The notes under the pieces: generated by a model
Seen by the model: only the letters and a program-made list of their open reading frames with translations
Databases searched by the model: none
Told to the model about the DNA's origin: nothing
From: a virus
Length of the DNA stretch: 64,000 nt
Strand: one strand, 5' to 3'
IMG/VR virus record: IMGVR_UViG_3300032116_000089
Location: 26,428 to 90,427 of that record
Position numbers and translations under genes: made by a program
Shown: piece by piece, positions 25,955-51,801 of the stretch
How the letters are laid out: every line of letters begins with the position of its first letter
Position numbering within the stretch: position 1 is the first letter of the stretch

Positions 25955-27358
25955 TCACTTACGTAAAACGTTATTTGTTAGCCACTCTGCCACACTAGCT
26001 CTTGTGGCTTCTATTTCATCGCTAGCATCAGAAGCATCTACGAGAGTGGCTTCTGTTGTTTTTACTTCTTCAAAAATAGCAGCAGTTGATTCTTCAGCTA
26101 CTTCTGTTTTCTCTTCTGCGACAACTTCAGTTTCTGAAGCCATTTCCTTCTTTTCTTCTTTCATCATCTTATCCTTCATGGCTCCCCACTTTTTCTTCAT
26201 GGCAGCAACAACTGCTTCGAAGGCTTCGTCGCTAAGAGCATCATATAAAGAAAGTGATTCATCGGCTTCCGAATCTTCAAAGCCAGCCATGACTAGCTTT
26301 TCTTTTCGGCTACGATCTTTTTCTTTCTTCTTCATGTCTTTCATTTCTTTATCCATTGCTGCTAAATCCTTTTGTAGATTAGCAATTGTTTCTTCTAAAG
26401 TTGTTACCTTAGAAGCATAAGCTTGAATTTCTGTTTCTTTAGCGACTAATGAAGCCTCTAATTCTGAAACATTGTTTTCTACTTGTACTTCTGTAGCTTC
26501 AACCTTTGCAGCTTCTTCTACAACTGGTGCAGTTTCTAGCTGCTTCTCTTCATTATTATCTGACATATTCACTTCTCCTTCTGAAACGTTGGAAATAGTT
26601 TGTTGTTCATCAACAGAGAAAGCCTTGCTAGAATCAAGAATGATACTTCTGGGATTTGCTGGTCTAGATACTAAACCTTTACCAGAAAAAGAAATATCTC
26701 TTAATAATCTACCAATTTGATAGCCTTCATATTCTCCGGTTCCGCCATAAGCCCTTAAATGCTTGGTTAAAAATGCCGAGTCTTCATTTCTGGCAACTAC
26801 TTTACTTTTACCAGCATTATCTTTTACGGCATAGTCAAAACCAGCAAATAAACATTCCATTGAAACGAACCACTTACCTTGTTCTATCTCTGATATGATT
26901 TTTTGCATCCTCTCTCTGTTCTCTGGATTTGTCCAACTGTTATAAATAACGGCTTCGGTTACAATGTCGAATTCATATGGTGTTTCAGAGTCTTCTGCGC
27001 TGACTTTGTTACCATCTCTATCAACAACATAACATCCAGTGATGTGTCCTATTATATCGTTTTCATTATGCATTAAATTAAATTGTTTGTCTTCTGGAGT
27101 ACTACGAGCCGCCCAAGTTTGGTTCGGATCGAAAACGTCATCGTTTTTATTCCATCCAGTAGAAACTAATATCGATTTAAGATAGTATAAATCTATTTGA
27201 TTTGGATTGCTAGATGCTTTTACTTTATCTAACAAAAGTTGAACAGCATCTGATTCTGTTTTGTTGCTAAGAACGGCAGCTGAACAATAAGCTATAGTCG
27301 TGTCATTTTTAACACGTTCTGATACTCCGTCAGCGATTTCTTGTGCATATATTTTCAT
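25955..27358 (-). CDS. Prohead maturation protease fused to scaffold
   Basis: N-terminal NxNxD, His, VSMEC and FSGKGLVSRPANP motifs; C-terminal acidic coiled coil; ATG at 27358 (the GTG at 27394 lies in the promoter motif). Confidence 0.8.
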   Translation of the reverse strand: MKIYAQEIADGVSERVKNDTTIAYCSAAVLSNKTESDAVQLLLDKVKASSNPNQIDLYYLKSILVSTGWNKNDDVFDPNQTWAARSTPEDKQFNLMHNENDIIGHITGCYVVDRDGNKVSAEDSETPYEFDIVTEAVIYNSWTNPENRERMQKIISEIEQGKWFVSMECLFAGFDYAVKDNAGKSKVVARNEDSAFLTKHLRAYGGTGEYEGYQIGRLLRDISFSGKGLVSRPANPRSIILDSSKAFSVDEQQTISNVSEGEVNMSDNNEEKQLETAPVVEEAAKVEATEVQVENNVSELEASLVAKETEIQAYASKVTTLEETIANLQKDLAAMDKEMKDMKKKEKDRSRKEKLVMAGFEDSEADESLSLYDALSDEAFEAVVAAMKKKWGAMKDKMMKEEKKEMASETEVVAEEKTEVAEESTAAIFEEVKTTEATLVDASDASDEIEATRASVAEWLTNNVLRK

Positions 27359-44335: not shown

Positions 44336-44580
44336 AGTTGATATATTTTATCTATTCTAGATCTTCTGCGTATGTCTCTACATACTATTCGCATTTCTAT
44401 AGAAGTATTTTGTTTCATGATTATATTAATTAAATCATTTAGTGCTTCAAAACACGCTTCGTCTGGATCCTTGGCTGTAATAAAAATAGTTGGAAATGGG
44501 CTATTATAAGATTTAAGAAATAGGTGTTTTATTTTAATGAAGACATTCGATATGTCTAGCATTATTCTGTAGTTTCTCAT
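44332..44580 (-). CDS. Hypothetical protein
   Basis: Overlapping operon ORF. Confidence 0.55.
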   Translation of the reverse strand: MRNYRIMLDISNVFIKIKHLFLKSYNSPFPTIFITAKDPDEACFEALNDLINIIMKQNTSIEMRIVCRDIRRRSRIDKIYQL

Positions 44581-45622
44581 TTAACTTTTCATCTATCATG
44601 AGTTTAATAAGACCATTTAGATCATATTTTGGATTCCATCCCAGTTTATTTCTTGCTTTAGTAGATCTGCCACGTAGGTAATCTACTTCCGCAGGTCTAT
44701 AGAATTTTTGATCTATGCCAACTAAATTATCCCATTCTATATTAAAATACCCAAAAGACACATCAAGTAAATCTTTTATGGAATATGTATTCTCTGTACA
44801 GATTACATAATCATCTGGTTCATCTTGCTGCAACATCATCCACATTGCTTCGACATAATCGCCAGCATAACCCCAATCTCTATAGGCATCTAAATTACCT
44901 AACATTAATTTAGGAAACTTTTTATCATATAATCCAAAGATTTCTATGTCGGAGTAGCATAGGTGTTTTATGTCAAAACTGTTATACTCTAGCCAATTAA
45001 TAAAACTAACTACCCAATTCACTACTTTTTTGGTGACAAAATTGTCGCCTCTGCGTGGCCCCTCATGATTAAACAATATTCCACAATTTCCATGAATGCC
45101 ATATGCTTCACGGTATAGTCTAACGGCGTAGTGAGATGCCGCTTTAGCTATGGCGTATGGAGACTGAGGCAAAAATCTAGTATTTTCGTCTTGGTATTTA
45201 ATACCATTGGCGTCAATGTCATATGATTTTCCAAACATTTCGCTAGAAGAAGCTTGATAAAATCTTGAACCAAGCATTTCAAGATCAACCATACTTTGTA
45301 ATATATTAAGACAGCCTTTACCGGTTATATCCCAAGTTAGGGATGGCTGCGTGAATGATGTGCCTACGTGCGATTGAGCCGCTAGATTATAGATTTCATC
45401 TACATCTTCGTTATTTCTAAATATATTGATGACACTGCTTGTATCTGTTATATCACCCTCTTCCAATTTGAATCTAGGATGATTTAATATATGTTTTATT
45501 CTTTGTGTATTATCTGTGCTTGCTCTTCTGCTAACCCCAATTACTTCGTAGTCTTTCTCTAATAATAGATCAGCTAAGTGGCTACCGTCTTGTCCTGTTA
45601 TTCCAAATATTATTGATTTCAT
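44534..45622 (-). CDS. gmd: GDP-mannose 4,6-dehydratase
   Basis: GITGQDGS, NLAAQSHV, YQASSSEMFG, SPYAIAK, LFNHE, RDWGYAGDYV, RPAEVD. Confidence 0.96.
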   Translation of the reverse strand: MKSIIFGITGQDGSHLADLLLEKDYEVIGVSRRASTDNTQRIKHILNHPRFKLEEGDITDTSSVINIFRNNEDVDEIYNLAAQSHVGTSFTQPSLTWDITGKGCLNILQSMVDLEMLGSRFYQASSSEMFGKSYDIDANGIKYQDENTRFLPQSPYAIAKAASHYAVRLYREAYGIHGNCGILFNHEGPRRGDNFVTKKVVNWVVSFINWLEYNSFDIKHLCYSDIEIFGLYDKKFPKLMLGNLDAYRDWGYAGDYVEAMWMMLQQDEPDDYVICTENTYSIKDLLDVSFGYFNIEWDNLVGIDQKFYRPAEVDYLRGRSTKARNKLGWNPKYDLNGLIKLMIDEKLNEKLQNNARHIECLH

Positions 45623-46498: not shown

Positions 46499-47280
46499 TC
46501 TATCACCGTATCTGGAGTTAAGAATGGTTGGTCAATTTGCCCGTCTTCATATTTATGGAACGCGCTCAAGCGTTCCCTCTCTTTCATCATAGCCAATCTC
46601 ATCTTTTCCATTTCAATCCCGTATCGTTTCAGCGTTTCGGGGTCTTGCATTAGGTGAGCTACCCAAGAAGTAAAGCTCTGCTTACTATCTTCAAGTCTCT
46701 TGATGCGCTGCTCGCGTGTGCCTTTCATTTCTCGTAGTATAGCGGCCTTCTTGGTCTGAAGTTCGCGGTAGTCGCGGTTAAGAGCCTCTTGAGAGGCCCG
46801 TAAGGATGCTAATTGACGCTCTAGATTTAGAACATAGTCATGGTCGCGTTGATCTTTATCTACGGCGCGCTCGTCTGCTAACATTTTTTCTAAGGTAGTC
46901 ATCTCATTAAGGTTATCTTTATTACTTTTTAAGCAGCGGTTCATAAGTATTTCAAGCTTTATAACATCAACTACCTGTAGCTCTTCTGTTGGAAATACAT
47001 CATCCTTGAACTGTGAAATTATGCGCGACCAGTGGTATTTAAAAAGCTCTAACTCAGAAGGAGTAAATTGACTCTCTAATTCTACCCAGTATGGGCGACT
47101 TTCTAGTGAATACGCGGCGGCCTCTTCATTAGACAGGCCCACTTGGAATTTTCTTTTGACGAAGCTGTCTATGCTCTCAACGTCGCGGTCAAGTTGCTTT
47201 GCAATGTCCTCGACGGTAACGTGGTCTATTAGGCGACCGATTATTCGCTCCTCATCTTTAGAGATTCTACCCTTCTTCAT
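46495..47280 (-). CDS. HTH plus coiled-coil protein, possible terminase small subunit
   Basis: N-terminal EDIAKQLDR HTH; long coiled coil; upstream of packaging genes. Confidence 0.4.
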   Translation of the reverse strand: MKKGRISKDEERIIGRLIDHVTVEDIAKQLDRDVESIDSFVKRKFQVGLSNEEAAAYSLESRPYWVELESQFTPSELELFKYHWSRIISQFKDDVFPTEELQVVDVIKLEILMNRCLKSNKDNLNEMTTLEKMLADERAVDKDQRDHDYVLNLERQLASLRASQEALNRDYRELQTKKAAILREMKGTREQRIKRLEDSKQSFTSWVAHLMQDPETLKRYGIEMEKMRLAMMKERERLSAFHKYEDGQIDQPFLTPDTVIE

Positions 47281-47755
47281 CTAGCAACTCCTTAATTAAC
47301 GCAATGATTTCTTCTCTTCTCTTTTTAGGAACGTAAACGTCATTTATTATTTTGAGATAGTCAGAACGGTATTCTGATGGTAACTTGCTATCAATAGACT
47401 CTTGTAAGGACTTGGCATCTATTTTATTGTCGTTTTCGTGGTGTTCTGCGGGAATAAAATCTTCATAAGATAAACTACTAGGTTTAAGTATCTTCTTCTT
47501 ATCTTCTTCGCCCTTAATATAGAAATTATCACGAACAAAATTCTTCAGTCTATTTGAAAGATGAACGGCCAAGAAATTTTCAAGGGGGCGTTTTTGATCG
47601 TAGCGATCCAGCGCATCCATGCAAATAATAAAAGCTTCTTGTTTTATATCTTCAAGCTCATATCCATGAAAAGTATAGCGGGCCGATATCCTATTAACGA
47701 CAATGTTAATCTGATCTATAACCTGTTGTTCTGTCATGTTTTTAGGAACTTTCAT
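47267..47755 (-). CDS. Phage sigma-factor-like protein (region 2; putative late sigma)
   Basis: EDIKQEAFIICMDALDRYD..RPLENFL..HLSNRLKNF resembles sigma70 region 2; no obvious region 4. Confidence 0.7.
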   Translation of the reverse strand: MKVPKNMTEQQVIDQINIVVNRISARYTFHGYELEDIKQEAFIICMDALDRYDQKRPLENFLAVHLSNRLKNFVRDNFYIKGEEDKKKILKPSSLSYEDFIPAEHHENDNKIDAKSLQESIDSKLPSEYRSDYLKIINDVYVPKKRREEIIALIKELLDEEG

Positions 47756-48420
47756 TCCTCGTTTTCTGACCATTGTAGCGATCTCCATCTTGTTCCATCA
47801 AAAAATTTTAAAGAGTCTGTTTTTTCATCATAAGAAAAATGTTTAATAGACTTGGACACAATATCTGAAAATTCATCACTAACAAACGATACGCTACGAA
47901 GATCACTGTCATTTACGCGAGCTAAGAAAGAGTGGGGCTTTATTTGAATAGAATGAGGGCGGGCAAATCCTTTAGACGATAAAACGCAGTTGTCATCATG
48001 AAGGGCGAATGCGTATTCTTCTGGATAAGATGCTATTAATAGATTAATGCGAGAGGGGTCACAAACAAACTTGACGCTAATGCTCTTAACTAGTTGCCTG
48101 TGATCTAATCGCTTGCCCTCAAATATGGGTATGGAGCGTTTTAGTATTCTATTGGGGCCGTCTTGATATATATAACCAAAACCGCTTTCGTGACGAACGA
48201 CTTCGTTATCGACTAGCGATAGTACAGTATAGTAAAACTTATTGTCTTCACCAAACTCAAAATGCTTGTGAATCAAGCAATCTTCATTAATGATACCATA
48301 GTATTGGGCGAATGATAGTTTATAATTAGCCCTATCTATACCATCAATACCACAAAGAACTAAATCATTGCTATTATCTAAATTAGATACTAATTCAATC
48401 GCTGGAGTTTGCTTGGTCAT
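47752..48420 (-). CDS. Hypothetical protein
   Basis: Coupled ORF. Confidence 0.6.
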   Translation of the reverse strand: MTKQTPAIELVSNLDNSNDLVLCGIDGIDRANYKLSFAQYYGIINEDCLIHKHFEFGEDNKFYYTVLSLVDNEVVRHESGFGYIYQDGPNRILKRSIPIFEGKRLDHRQLVKSISVKFVCDPSRINLLIASYPEEYAFALHDDNCVLSSKGFARPHSIQIKPHSFLARVNDSDLRSVSFVSDEFSDIVSKSIKHFSYDEKTDSLKFFDGTRWRSLQWSENEE

Positions 48421-48766: not shown

Positions 48767-48812
48767 GGGTGGGCCGCGTGTGACGTAAACCCTTGGTACG
48801 TATAGACTTACG
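48767..48812 (+). repeat. Composite repeat R1 (GC core + right palindrome)
   Basis: GGCCGC at 48772; CGTAAACCCTT-N7-ATAGACTTACG at 48784. Confidence 0.85.
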
Positions 48813-48878
48813 ACGAGTATGTGTGATGGGAATAGAGTATGCAGTGCATAGTATGTGTGCATGGTAAGATGGGTAAGG

Positions 48879-49046
48879 TGTTGCATAATGATACAATACC
48901 TCAATATCTCGGCCTAAAACACTAACGCAAAATGCTACACGCTGTAGCAAAATGCTACGCTCAATACCTAGGCACAAAAAATGTCATAGCGTTTTCCCCG
49001 AGAAATACGCACAAAAAAATAATCTATGCTTGGCACGGCGATTGCT
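48879..49046 (+). promoter_or_regulatory. sigma54 promoter with three upstream activator sites, copy 1
   Basis: TGGCAC-GGCGA-TTGCT at 49031; TGTAGCAAAATGCTACA-like boxes at 48879, 48923, 48943. Confidence 0.8.
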
Positions 49047-49079
49047 CTTATATATGGCATAAGAAAGAGAGAAAGAAAG

Positions 49080-49211
49080 ATGATTACGATGATTAAGATT
49101 ACCCAAAACACTACTGCTATGGTAAAGAATGGTAAGGTAATATACCTTATTCAGAATGGAAAGATTACCCAAGATCCTTTGAAGGTTCGATACTTTCAGA
49201 GGATGATCTGA
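49080..49211 (+). CDS. Small early protein (43 aa)
   Basis: Follows the sigma54 promoter and a purine-rich leader. Confidence 0.6.
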   Translation: MITMIKITQNTTAMVKNGKVIYLIQNGKITQDPLKVRYFQRMI

Positions 49212-49239
49212 ACCTTACGAAAGATTCAGAATCAAGCCC

Positions 49240-49267
49240 TTGACAACCAAAAGCCGATAAGTATAAT
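49240..49267 (+). promoter_or_regulatory. sigma70 promoter, first of about 20 (others at 49497, 49707, 50765, 51150, 51856, 52425, 53041, 53619, 53741, 54023, 54180, 55446, 57254, 58835, 59318, 60602, 60929, 61774, 62689, 62950)
   Basis: TTGACA-N16-TATAAT here; the others are mostly TTGAC(A/T)-N16/17-TA(G/T/C)AAT, often with extended -10 TG. Confidence 0.85.
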
Positions 49268-49290
49268 AGAGAAAGAAAGAGAAAAAGAAA

Positions 49291-49500
49291 ATGGAAAAGT
49301 CCACTACAGTTAACAGTTTCATCCGTTCCCTTCCGCCAGTTTACACGCACGATAATGTAGTGCATATGAAAAATGGCAAATCCTACAGGGTATACCGCTG
49401 CGGTTCCCTTGGTGCGGTTTACCGCTACATGCGTTCCCAAGGTTTCGATACTAACGACATTGTTAGGGTCGATCTGGTTCCCGCAAAAAATCGGGCTTGA
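49291..49500 (+). CDS. Small early protein
   Basis: Own promoter and leader. Confidence 0.7.
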   Translation: MEKSTTVNSFIRSLPPVYTHDNVVHMKNGKSYRVYRCGSLGAVYRYMRSQGFDTNDIVRVDLVPAKNRA

Positions 49501-49548
49501 CACCCTAGAAAAATCTGCTAGAATAAGAGAAAGAAAAGGAAAAAGAAA

Positions 49549-49710
49549 ATGAAGACTTGGACACAAGATCACCGATACATCGTTTGGACAGTGACTGAGG
49601 GTACGCGAAACCATTACGATCTATACGTTGGCGGTGTACTCAAGTACACTAATCTTCCATTCGAAGAGTTCTATCCTATCTACAAAAAAGAATGCGAAAA
49701 GGGGGCTTGA
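49549..49710 (+). CDS. Small early protein (53 aa)
   Basis: MKTWTQDHRY...; own promoter. Confidence 0.7.
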   Translation: MKTWTQDHRYIVWTVTEGTRNHYDLYVGGVLKYTNLPFEEFYPIYKKECEKGA

Positions 49711-49759
49711 CACCTAAAAGCAATACGCTACAATAGAATCAACACAAGGGAAAAAAGAA

Positions 49760-49909
49760 ATGACCATCCAAGTCCAAAACACTGTTCGCTGCCTAGTCGC
49801 CCGTCATGGATATTCGGCCACGTTCGTGCAGCACATGGGCGAAGGTATCGTGTTGTATAGCATCGGCGGTATCATGTACCGTATTCGTGGTGATGGTACG
49901 ATTCTCTAA
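49760..49909 (+). CDS. Small early protein (49 aa)
   Basis: MTIQVQNTVR...; own promoter. Confidence 0.7.
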   Translation: MTIQVQNTVRCLVARHGYSATFVQHMGEGIVLYSIGGIMYRIRGDGTIL

Positions 49910-49959
49910 GGTATTTGACAGGCCAGAATCCGATAAGTAAGAAAGAAAGAGAGAACCAA

Positions 49960-50190
49960 ATGAGAATCCCCAAAGAGTCAACCATTCGTCAAAATTTTCG
50001 TGCCTATGCCTACAAGGCTGGCTTCACGATCCTTCCGCAAACGAATGGCCTTTACAACGTGTTCGATAATCGCGTAGGCTATACCGTGAACCGGAATCGA
50101 ACCATGTGCGAAGTGGTGCGAATCATCATCGACGAAATGCACATGATCGAATACAACCGAAAGAATCGTTCCCCCGTTGTGGGGGCTTGA
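49960..50190 (+). CDS. Small early protein, paralog of 50560..50757
   Basis: Shared K.GF...G.Y...D...GY.V...VVR.I.DE..MIEYN.KNRS. Confidence 0.8.
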   Translation: MRIPKESTIRQNFRAYAYKAGFTILPQTNGLYNVFDNRVGYTVNRNRTMCEVVRIIIDEMHMIEYNRKNRSPVVGA

Positions 50191-50241
50191 CAACTGGAGT
50201 AGGGGGTGAAAGGGTGTACACCACTACTTAGGGGGGTTGCC

Positions 50242-50286
50242 GGGGGGCCGCATTCGACGTAAACCCTTACGCCACAAAGACTTACG
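50242..50286 (+). repeat. Composite repeat R2 (core + right palindrome)
   Basis: GGCCGC at 50246; palindrome at 50258. Confidence 0.85.
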
Positions 50287-50365
50287 ACGAGTAACGACGC
50301 AACTACAATGCCAAGGAATAAAAAAATCCTATGCTCACAGAATGGGCATGGTAAGATGGGTAACC

Positions 50366-50534
50366 CGTCGCAAAATGCTACACTACCATAGTTTCGCGGC
50401 TGAAATCGCTAACGCAAAATGATACAGTGTGTTGCAAAATGCTACGCTCAAAATCTAGGCACAAAAAATAGCATAGCGTTTTTCCCGAGGAAAACAGCAC
50501 TTCAGAATATTTCTGTATTGGCACACCGATTGCT
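50366..50534 (+). promoter_or_regulatory. sigma54 promoter with three upstream activator sites, copy 2
   Basis: TGGCAC-ACCGA-TTGCT at 50519; boxes at 50366, 50410, 50430. Confidence 0.8.
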
Positions 50535-50559
50535 CTATATAAGGGTAAAGAAAGAGAGA

Positions 50560-50757
50560 ATGAAAATGAAAAATCTGAAGATGGAAGCCGTGAAGGTTGG
50601 ATTCGTGCTGAGTAAGGATGCCAGTGGATTCTACCACCTGCACGATATCAAGATGGGTTACGATGTGCTGGTTACGGCTTTCCGTGCTAGCGTCGTTCGT
50701 GCCATTCAAGACGAAAAGGCGATGATCGAATACAACAAAAAGAATCGCTCCCTCTGA
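50560..50757 (+). CDS. Small early protein, paralog of 49960..50190
   Basis: Sequence similarity to the paralog; follows sigma54 promoter. Confidence 0.8.
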   Translation: MKMKNLKMEAVKVGFVLSKDASGFYHLHDIKMGYDVLVTAFRASVVRAIQDEKAMIEYNKKNRSL

Positions 50758-51212: not shown

Positions 51213-51512
51213 ATGACTCACGCCGAAGCGACAAAGATGGTTTTGGGCAAGCGTAATCGTAGCCAGCGTAAGGTTGGAAATAATACCTACGCTTATATTG
51301 AATATGATGGAAGTGTGGCTATTGAGTTGCATGGCACTAAGGTAGTGGTTTTTTCTCCTAATGGTATGGTGAAGTTGAACAGTGGTGGATATCGCACCCA
51401 TACTACGAAAAAGAGAATCAACCAGTATAGCCCCGTGCGGGTTTATCAGAAAAACTTTGAGTGGTTTTTGAGTGATGGTACTCCGTTTGAAGATAACATT
51501 TTGGTTTCATAA
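51213..51512 (+). CDS. Hypothetical phage protein (LHGT...LNSGGY.T.TTK.RIN motif)
   Basis: Own promoter and RBS. Confidence 0.75.
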   Translation: MTHAEATKMVLGKRNRSQRKVGNNTYAYIEYDGSVAIELHGTKVVVFSPNGMVKLNSGGYRTHTTKKRINQYSPVRVYQKNFEWFLSDGTPFEDNILVS

Positions 51513-51631: not shown

Positions 51632-51709
51632 ATGCGTACACTAGACAAAGTTACACTAGCGGTATCATTCGTGATCGGATGTATAGCGGCTTGGATCGTG
51701 AACAGTTGA
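51632..51709 (+). CDS. Tiny membrane peptide (25 aa)
   Basis: AAGGA RBS; MRTLDKVTLAVSFVIGCIAAWIVNS. Confidence 0.5.
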   Translation: MRTLDKVTLAVSFVIGCIAAWIVNS

Positions 51710-51756
51710 CGTAACTCTATATCTAACAAGGGTTTACGACGAGCGGGGCGGGCCGC
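51710..51756 (+). repeat. Composite repeat R3 (left palindrome + core)
   Basis: Palindrome at 51710; GCGGGGCGGGCCGC at 51743. Confidence 0.85.
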
Positions 51757-51766
51757 CGCCGATTTT

Positions 51767-51801
51767 TGGCATGGTATTTGCTAGTAGCAAGTCGTGTGCC
51801 A
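51767..51801. promoter_or_regulatory. Two face-to-face sigma54 -24/-12 motifs
   Basis: Plus strand TGGCAT-GGTAT-TTGCT (51767); minus strand TGGCAC-ACGAC-TTGCT (51801-51786). Confidence 0.65.

Follow-up and report, generated by a model that had tools for sequence, protein, structure and literature searches.

At the glnAp2 promoter of enteric bacteria, tandem NtrC sites are centred at about −108 and −140 and the activator oligomerises on several sites, each of which has a 7-N3-7 geometry with a CA-N3-TG core. The norV promoter carries three NorR sites, and at zraP-zraSR a divergent pair of sigma-54 promoters surrounds one enhancer. Here, we describe a comparable arrangement in a 64,000-nucleotide stretch of viral DNA (hereafter the window), which makes up the final 64 kb (positions 26,428 to 90,427) of the 90,427-bp linear IMG/VR record IMGVR_UViG_3300032116_000089, a record that is 57% complete by CheckV. 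The window contains two copies of a regulatory module, each with three 17-bp dyad boxes upstream of a sigma-54-type −24/−12 element and a small gene. Judged from sequence comparison, both copies probably act as sigma-54 promoters that depend on an enhancer and are fired by an NtrC-family activator of the host.

Like glnAp2, the phage locus has a −24/−12 promoter and, centred more than 100 bp upstream (−106, −126 and −170), dyads that are 17 bp long and show the 7-N3-7 geometry and the CA-N3-TG core. Unlike glnAp2, it has the half-site TGTWGCA rather than TGCACCA and three sites rather than two strong ones, and it belongs to a phage genome without an activator gene. Three activator sites per promoter are shared with norV and NorR, consistent with three dimers giving one hexamer. 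Similarly to zraP-zraSR, copy 2 and a third of the modules of related phages have a leftward box across the same three sites. In these two comparisons, the site sequences differ and the leftward box of the phage faces no gene.

The Qrr small-RNA promoters of Vibrionaceae are sigma-54 promoters with several LuxO/SypG sites upstream, and the LuxO site TTGCAWWWTGCAA and the SypG site TTCTCANNNTGMDWN both have the CA-N3-TG core (PMC10162802). The phage modules likewise have several sites of the TTGCAWWWTGCAA form within −60 to −175, and the common phage box GTTGCAAAATGCTACA agrees with the LuxO motif in all but one of 13 positions (12 of 13). However, the phage dyad is two bases longer on each side (TGT...ACA), the product is a small protein and not a small RNA, and LuxO is found in Vibrionaceae, which are not likely hosts of a freshwater phage. 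Among phages, a sigma-54-like promoter is known from Pseudomonas phage YuA; described by Ceyssens et al. (2008), it is mapped as YuA P015 in PMC10914365, which cites that study. In the account available there, YuA is virulent, has no RNA polymerase of its own and, like the phage described here, has a host sigma-54-type promoter beside sigma-70 promoters; enhancer sites for YuA are not described in the available part of that source. The present phage is unrelated to YuA, much larger and uncultured, and its cassette is duplicated and found in dozens of contigs, with many boxes that have no gene. In the literature searched, conserved enhancer-bearing sigma-54 cassettes in activator-less phages were not found, and YuA was the sole precedent.

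Layout of the two regulatory copies

Module copy 1 spans 48768–49079 on the plus strand, beginning with half of a palindrome plus GC-core element and ending at the base before an ATG, and copy 2 spans 50242–50559 on the same strand. The copies are about 310 bp each and show 84% mean column identity over 340 aligned columns. Each has three 17-bp dyads with the core GCA-N3-TGC, the best dyad copy being TGTAGCA-AAA-TGCTACA, with 7-N3-7 geometry and a CA-N3-TG core. In copy 1, box 1 lies at 48879–48895 (TGTTGCA-TAA-TGATACA, centre about −170), box 2 at 48923–48939 (TAACGCA-AAA-TGCTACA, centre about −126) and box 3 at 48943–48959 (TGTAGCA-AAA-TGCTACG, centre about −106). The corresponding boxes of copy 2 are located at 50366–50382 (CGTCGCA-AAA-TGCTACA), 50410–50426 (TAACGCA-AAA-TGATACA) and 50430–50446 (TGTTGCA-AAA-TGCTACG). 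Measured from start to start, the boxes of either copy are 44 and 20 bp apart, equal to 4.2 and 1.9 helical turns. Both copies thus present the geometry of an enhancer, with multiple dyads some 80–200 bp upstream and on about the same helix face.

The −24/−12 element of copy 1, TGGCACGGCGATTGCT, is located at 49031–49046 (+), 72 bp after box 3, and that of copy 2, TGGCACACCGATTGCT, at 50519–50534 (+), 73 bp after box 3. Both are exact matches to TGGCAC-N5-TTGCT. In the longer form YTGGCACG-N4-TTGCW, with GG and GC 10 nt apart, they read CTTGGCACGGCGATTGCT (49029–49046) and ATTGGCACACCGATTGCT (50517–50534). By the usual rule of a start 11–13 nt after the GC, transcription is predicted to begin near 49057 in copy 1 and 50545 in copy 2. 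The ATG codons at 49080 and 50560 follow the promoter box by 33 and 25 bp, respectively, behind a purine-rich leader of about 23 nt. A scan for sigma-70 promoters returned none inside either copy. A sigma-70 reading of TTGGCA with a TATATA run was rejected by inspection for its poor spacing and −10, and an NtcA site (consensus GTA-N8-TAC) was likewise rejected by inspection, as the boxes are GTA-N9-TAC and the spacing does not fit.

These motifs far exceed their chance expectation. In 1000 first-order Markov simulations of the window, exact TGGCAC-N5-TTGCW was expected 0.056 times and dyad box cores 0.068 times, compared with three and six observed, and none of the 1000 simulations reached either count. 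Throughout the 90-kb record, dyad cores are confined to the two copies.

The sequence-only reading had described two copies of about 300 bp, each with a CATGGTAAGATGGGTAA element, three boxes spaced 44 and 20 bp apart, a 72- or 73-bp gap, TGGCAC-N5-TTGCT and a small gene, and every one of these elements was recovered where it had been placed. The inventory was accurate for the elements it named but missed three sigma-54-type boxes (50299–50313, 51767–51782 and 51786–51801). The description of the intervening sequence as diverged, with boxes and spacing kept, is right for the boxes and spacing; however, conservation is also strong in the segment that extends from box 3 to about −50, whether the two copies or the relatives are compared. 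This segment includes a block at 48969–48999 (+), between enhancer and promoter, with an A6 tract and a T4 tract. The A6 and T4-5 tracts fall at about −81 and −65, and the block could act as an intrinsic bend.

One of the missed boxes, TGGCATTGTAGTTGC, lies on the minus strand inside copy 2 (50299–50313), and 52 bp separate it from box 1. This box and the rightward one at 50519 are divergent, with a single enhancer between them. What lies in front of the leftward box is not a gene but a palindrome/GC-core element, along with the tail end of the gene upstream. A GGGGGCTTGACA box of the early-promoter family, with no recognisable −10, is located at 50181–50195, shortly before copy 2; it may be a decayed promoter.

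Conservation of the cassette among relatives

IMG/VR was scanned with the 18-mer GCAAAATGCTACGCTCAA, which consists of the box 3 core and the next six bases and includes no promoter sequence. The scan yielded 25 loci on contigs of up to 231 kb. TTGGCAC-N6-TGC was located 83–85 bp downstream of the query in every aligned instance. Its ten specified bases are invariant across 22 distinct sequences, and the six bases between them vary, with at least 10 forms; the five-base spacers include ACCGA, GGCGA, GGGCT, GGTAG, AGGAA, AGTAT, AGAAA, AGAAC, GGAAG and GGGAA. Fixed blocks around a varying spacer are the pattern expected of sigma-54 recognition. The assignment of the promoters to the sigma-54 type in the sequence-only reading thus gains support from relatives whose retrieval made no use of sigma-54 features. 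Outside the query, boxes 1 and 2 are nearly invariant as well. The genes that follow the module vary between loci, so that the conserved unit is the control cassette and not the gene.

A second IMG/VR scan, for one box core and a sigma-54 box 60–90 bp apart, yielded 52 loci, and the two scans and the window together comprise 42 distinct modules. In all of these the dyads are upstream of the promoter box, at about 70–150 bp. Their offsets from the −24 element vary (−148/−104/−84 and −95/−75, and, with a looser core, −106/−94/−74 and −129/−117/−97). A variable position within a constant architecture is typical of enhancers. Furthermore, in three whole sequences (G0, G2 and G3), dyads occur exclusively upstream of a sigma-54 box, and the converse is not true. 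The linkage of the dyads to sigma-54 boxes, their positions at about −106, −126 and −170 and their NtrC/LuxO/SypG core all favour the earlier proposal that they are enhancer sites. A second, leftward sigma-54 box beyond the dyads is present in 14 of the 42 modules, copy 2 included. In the de-duplicated set, 21 of 24 module promoters are followed by a AAGAAAGAG leader and an ATG; this type of purine-rich leader is also found behind sigma-70 promoters of the phage. The 'direct terminal repeats' of the complete relatives G002 and G003 measure 127 and 123 bp. A length of 127 is about the largest k-mer in common metagenome assembler use, and these repeats may mark circular assemblies rather than physical genome ends.

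Repeated boxes beside A/T-rich tracts would also suit an explanation in which the boxes serve as origin iterons or phage-repressor operators, or in which a structured RNA is encoded by the conserved 150 bp, with the proximity to sigma-54 elements incidental. The CATGGTAAGATGGGTAA element, at 48860–48876 and 50347–50363 (+), has the form TGnTAAGAT, which resembles an extended −10, and lies just upstream of box 1, and for one copy the fold is somewhat more stable than those of shuffled sequence (z = −2.5). The CATGGTAAGATGGGTAA element is kept in most relatives but not all; several lineages have the boxes and the promoter but not this element. The boxes are dyads and not direct repeats, number only three per copy, twice in the window, and are always coupled to a −24/−12 box at 70–150 bp; they do not fit an iteron origin, defined by at least four direct repeats independent of a promoter. 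For a structured RNA, the other three folds gave z = 0.0, −0.8 and −0.9 and the structures differ between copies. A hairpin of boxes 2 and 3 is broken without compensation in relatives with TGTTGCA in place of TGTAGCA, and Rfam gave no family match near the modules. We consider all three variants very improbable.

The sigma-54 machinery and the host

The earlier statement that no activator is encoded in the window now extends to the whole 90-kb record and five relatives of 145–231 kb (94–100% complete). In profile searches, none of these contained an RpoN core-binding or DNA-binding domain, a Fis-type helix-turn-helix (HTH_8) or a Sigma54_activat domain above noise. No GAFTGA-like motif was found in a six-frame scan of the record and two complete relatives. 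The rest of the record thus contains no recognised AAA+ enhancer-binding protein; the one weak AAA+ match, in the 231-kb relative, is a RuvB homologue and was rejected as a candidate activator. Because the machinery is absent from the record and the near-complete relatives, sigma-54 and any activator would have to be those of the host.

It is conceivable, at distinctly low probability, that the promoters are sigma-54-dependent and the activator is nevertheless encoded by the phage, either as a non-canonical protein that escapes profile searches or by a gene on the missing ~43% of the genome. The incompleteness of the record and the many early proteins without a family match (most of them) leave room for such a gene. 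Against it, the five near-complete relatives lack Sigma54_activat, GAFTGA and HTH_8, RuvB being the single weak match, and to our knowledge every known sigma-54 activator is an AAA+ protein of the Sigma54_activat family.

Under the favoured reading, that of enhancer-dependent promoters fired by the host, host RNA polymerase with sigma-54 would bind TTGGCAC-N6-TGC and remain there in a closed complex. Dimers of an NtrC-family activator of the host (an AAA+ ATPase with a Fis-type helix-turn-helix) would occupy the three CA-N3-TG dyads, centred at about −106, −126 and −170, and three dimers would be enough for one hexamer. The intervening DNA, with its conserved A and T tracts, would loop, and ATP hydrolysis would open the promoter. 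Transcripts starting near 49057 and 50545 would then carry the leader of about 23 nt and a small protein of 43 or 65 aa. Since such activators are switched by phosphorylation or ligands, we infer that expression of the two genes would be conditional and dependent on host state, unlike that of their neighbours behind constitutive sigma-70 promoters. The proposal that the phage ties genes to host signalling is thereby supported as far as computation goes.

Dyads of the phage type were also sought in bacteria, with one genome per species and a pattern of one box core plus a sigma-54 box. Two of the five matches carry the full dyad or all but its last base, which the pattern did not require. One of the five is a phage-like contig that was binned into a Flavobacteriales MAG. 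In a Bacillus isolate, a perfect dyad (TGTWGCA-W3-TGCWACA) lies between a sigma-54-promoted hydantoinase/oxoprolinase operon and a divergent gene for a GAF-AAA+-HTH_8 activator. At a second, independent locus, in a deltaproteobacterial metagenome-assembled genome (MAG), a dyad cluster at least ~80 bp from a sigma-54 box adjoins genes for a histidine kinase and a REC-AAA+-HTH_8 protein. One of three dyad sites in Pseudomonadota lies 148 bp after a REC-AAA+-HTH_8 gene. Sigma-54 promoters are present at two of these three activator-gene loci, and the activator-gene context was not seen at three other perfect dyads (L051, L054 and L056). The phage dyad type is therefore in use at sigma-54 activator loci of distant bacteria, none of which is plausible as the host of a lake phage.

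Several observations weigh against host-activated sigma-54 promoters. The five matches of the bacterial scan are about the number expected by chance, and in 401 sampled Pseudomonadota the perfect dyad was at chance level (three sites, compared with two for the reversed control), with no host regulon. The consensus of integration host factor (IHF), WATCAANNNNTTR, was not found between enhancer and promoter in either copy with up to one mismatch. Given a Kyano_Gp96 domain and a terminase with distant similarity to that of one Microcystis phage, there is a small chance that the host is a cyanobacterium and, as such, would lack sigma-54. There is no RNA run among those with near-identical DNA. Finally, 68 of the 92 sigma-54-type boxes in the de-duplicated family set have no dyads, leader or gene, which makes them about three times as numerous as the module boxes. 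A purely promoter-based view leaves these orphan boxes unexplained, and the motif may have another role in these phages.

With regard to the host, the Kyano_Gp96 domain (E = 4×10−10) is found in a small early protein at 51213–51512 (+), and the family is named after T4-like cyanophages; the cyanophage hallmark psbA is absent from the relatives. The terminase was tried as a guide to the host and rejected, as its identity to Bacillus siphophages was only 26%. A 15,640-bp contig (L049 = L073), which carries the module along with HNH/GIY-YIG endonuclease genes, has two entries, one among the IMG/VR viruses and the other within a Flavobacteriales MAG. As a host clue this bin is doubtful, since the genes of the contig have Shine-Dalgarno sites.

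An rpoN-less cyanobacterial or actinobacterial host would be one setting for a further explanation, in which the motifs are read by a factor other than sigma-54 (a phage DNA-binding protein or the phage's own sigma-70-family factor) and their likeness to sigma-54 elements is coincidental. The phage does encode a protein of the sigma-70 family (47267–47788), and the paired, palindromic arrangements of boxes described below would suit a dimeric binding protein. Nevertheless, more than 100 boxes of the family fit the bipartite consensus, with GG and GC fixed 10 nt apart and spacers unconstrained even within palindromic pairs. The late AGGAG ribosome sites, the early TTGACA-N16/17-TATAAT promoters and the lack of psbA in relatives also speak against it, as does the match of the dyads to sites beside bacterial sigma-54 activator genes. 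This explanation is improbable.

Orphan boxes, downstream genes and genome context

In the phage family, dozens of consensus sigma-54 boxes in both orientations surround palindrome/GC-core elements in the first 3–4 kb of the early region. Five boxes lie in the window, between 49.0 and 51.8 kb, compared with 11 within 3.7 kb and eight within 2.9 kb in two complete relatives. Two of the five form a face-to-face pair, TGGCAT-N5-TTGCT at 51767–51782 (+) and TGGCAC-N5-TTGCT at 51786–51801 (−), just after a terminator-like hairpin, with no dyads upstream and no leader. Among the 68 orphan boxes, 29 point into a palindrome/GC-core element, 27 point away and 12 do neither. The spacers within opposite-strand pairs are not complementary, which favours a protein recognising two separate blocks over an RNA hairpin.

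Back-to-back pairs on opposite strands were observed in the complete relative L037-L045 (G003), at 143284–143321 and 144691–144728. Opposite-strand pairs sit right after gene ends, beside palindrome/GC-core elements, and have no dyads or leaders. The composite elements are imperfect palindromes (GACGTAAACCCTT...ACTTACGACGAG), located in the window at 48768–48819, 50242–50293 and 51707–51760. Their A-C mismatches on the plus strand would be G-U pairs in minus-strand RNA. In the relatives that were checked visually, such elements have leftward sigma-54 boxes directed into them.

The orphan boxes raise the possibility that the motif is a site for sigma-54 polymerase, or for sigma-54 alone, with a role other than that of a promoter. 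Next to terminator and palindrome elements it could act as a roadblock or insulator, or it could titrate the sigma-54 of the host; the two gene-linked boxes would be part of this system, with the dyads recruiting or trapping the activator instead of activating transcription. The orphans themselves, the face-to-face and back-to-back pairs and the concentration of boxes within one 3–4 kb stretch where the early region of complete genomes begins all agree with such a role. The module boxes, however, are unlike the orphans: they keep a fixed distance from the dyads, and 21 of 24 have the standard leader and ATG. In addition, neither gene behind the two copies has another promoter of its own. We consider this unlikely as an account of the modules. 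In a further reading, also unlikely, the gene-linked cassettes would be only the visible part of a larger phage system based on host sigma-54, in which stable closed complexes at the boxes could insulate adjacent units, the boxes, if fired, could drive convergent short transcripts across the palindrome/GC-core elements, and triple enhancers could capture the host activator. In such a system, the phage could both read and damp the host signalling pathway.

The gene behind copy 1, at 49080–49211 (+), is the first of the early region and encodes 43 aa; the small gene behind copy 2, at 50560–50757 (+), encodes 65 aa, and neither product has a family match. The latter gene is a paralogue of the adjacent upstream gene at 49960–50190 (43% identity, E = 3×10−16), which has its own TTGACA box with a weak, degenerate −10. 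If both promoters are read as proposed, the upstream gene would be constitutive and its paralogue conditional. The direct effect of the cassettes is limited to two small genes, and the rest of the early region is on near-consensus sigma-70 promoters.

The record derives from a tailed phage. A long leftward block carries structural and packaging genes, including those for a 2361-aa tape measure protein, fibres, the large terminase subunit and the major head protein, and a rightward block from about 48.8 kb contains numerous small genes and seven tRNA genes. The sigma-70-family protein gene at 47267–47788 (−) was recognised by a Sigma70_r2 domain (E = 9×10−7), and its product is presumably a late-gene factor. 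Late genes are preceded by classical AGGAG ribosome sites, and a promoter scan placed a near-consensus TTGACA-N16/17-TATAAT promoter at nearly every early gene. A purine-rich leader (GAAAGAAAGAGAGA...) is common to early genes (49060–49079, 49268–49290, 49526–49548 and others) in place of the AGGAG Shine-Dalgarno sequence of late genes. The leftward block also includes a GDP-mannose 4,6-dehydratase gene at 44534–45622 (−), about 1.6 kb before the large terminase gene; the dehydratase has 65–95% identity to many metagenomic proteins. Another 19 runs, from 16 additional studies, contain near-identical DNA; their labels are freshwater, lake water or, for one 2019 series, fungus metagenome. Among cultured phages, the 2.3-kb region had no match at the nucleotide level.

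The use of sigma-54 by a phage is already known from YuA, and a promoter-plus-enhancer cassette in activator-less phages would broaden the known use of host transcription. If the favoured reading is true, a widespread family of large freshwater phages, with the module present in dozens of IMG/VR contigs, makes part of its early programme depend on a signal-transduction protein of the host rather than relying on constitutive promoters throughout. The paralogue pair behind sigma-70-type and sigma-54 promoters would allow a direct comparison of constitutive and conditional expression within one small-protein family, and the highly conserved dyad would serve as a search key for the host and the regulon of its activator.

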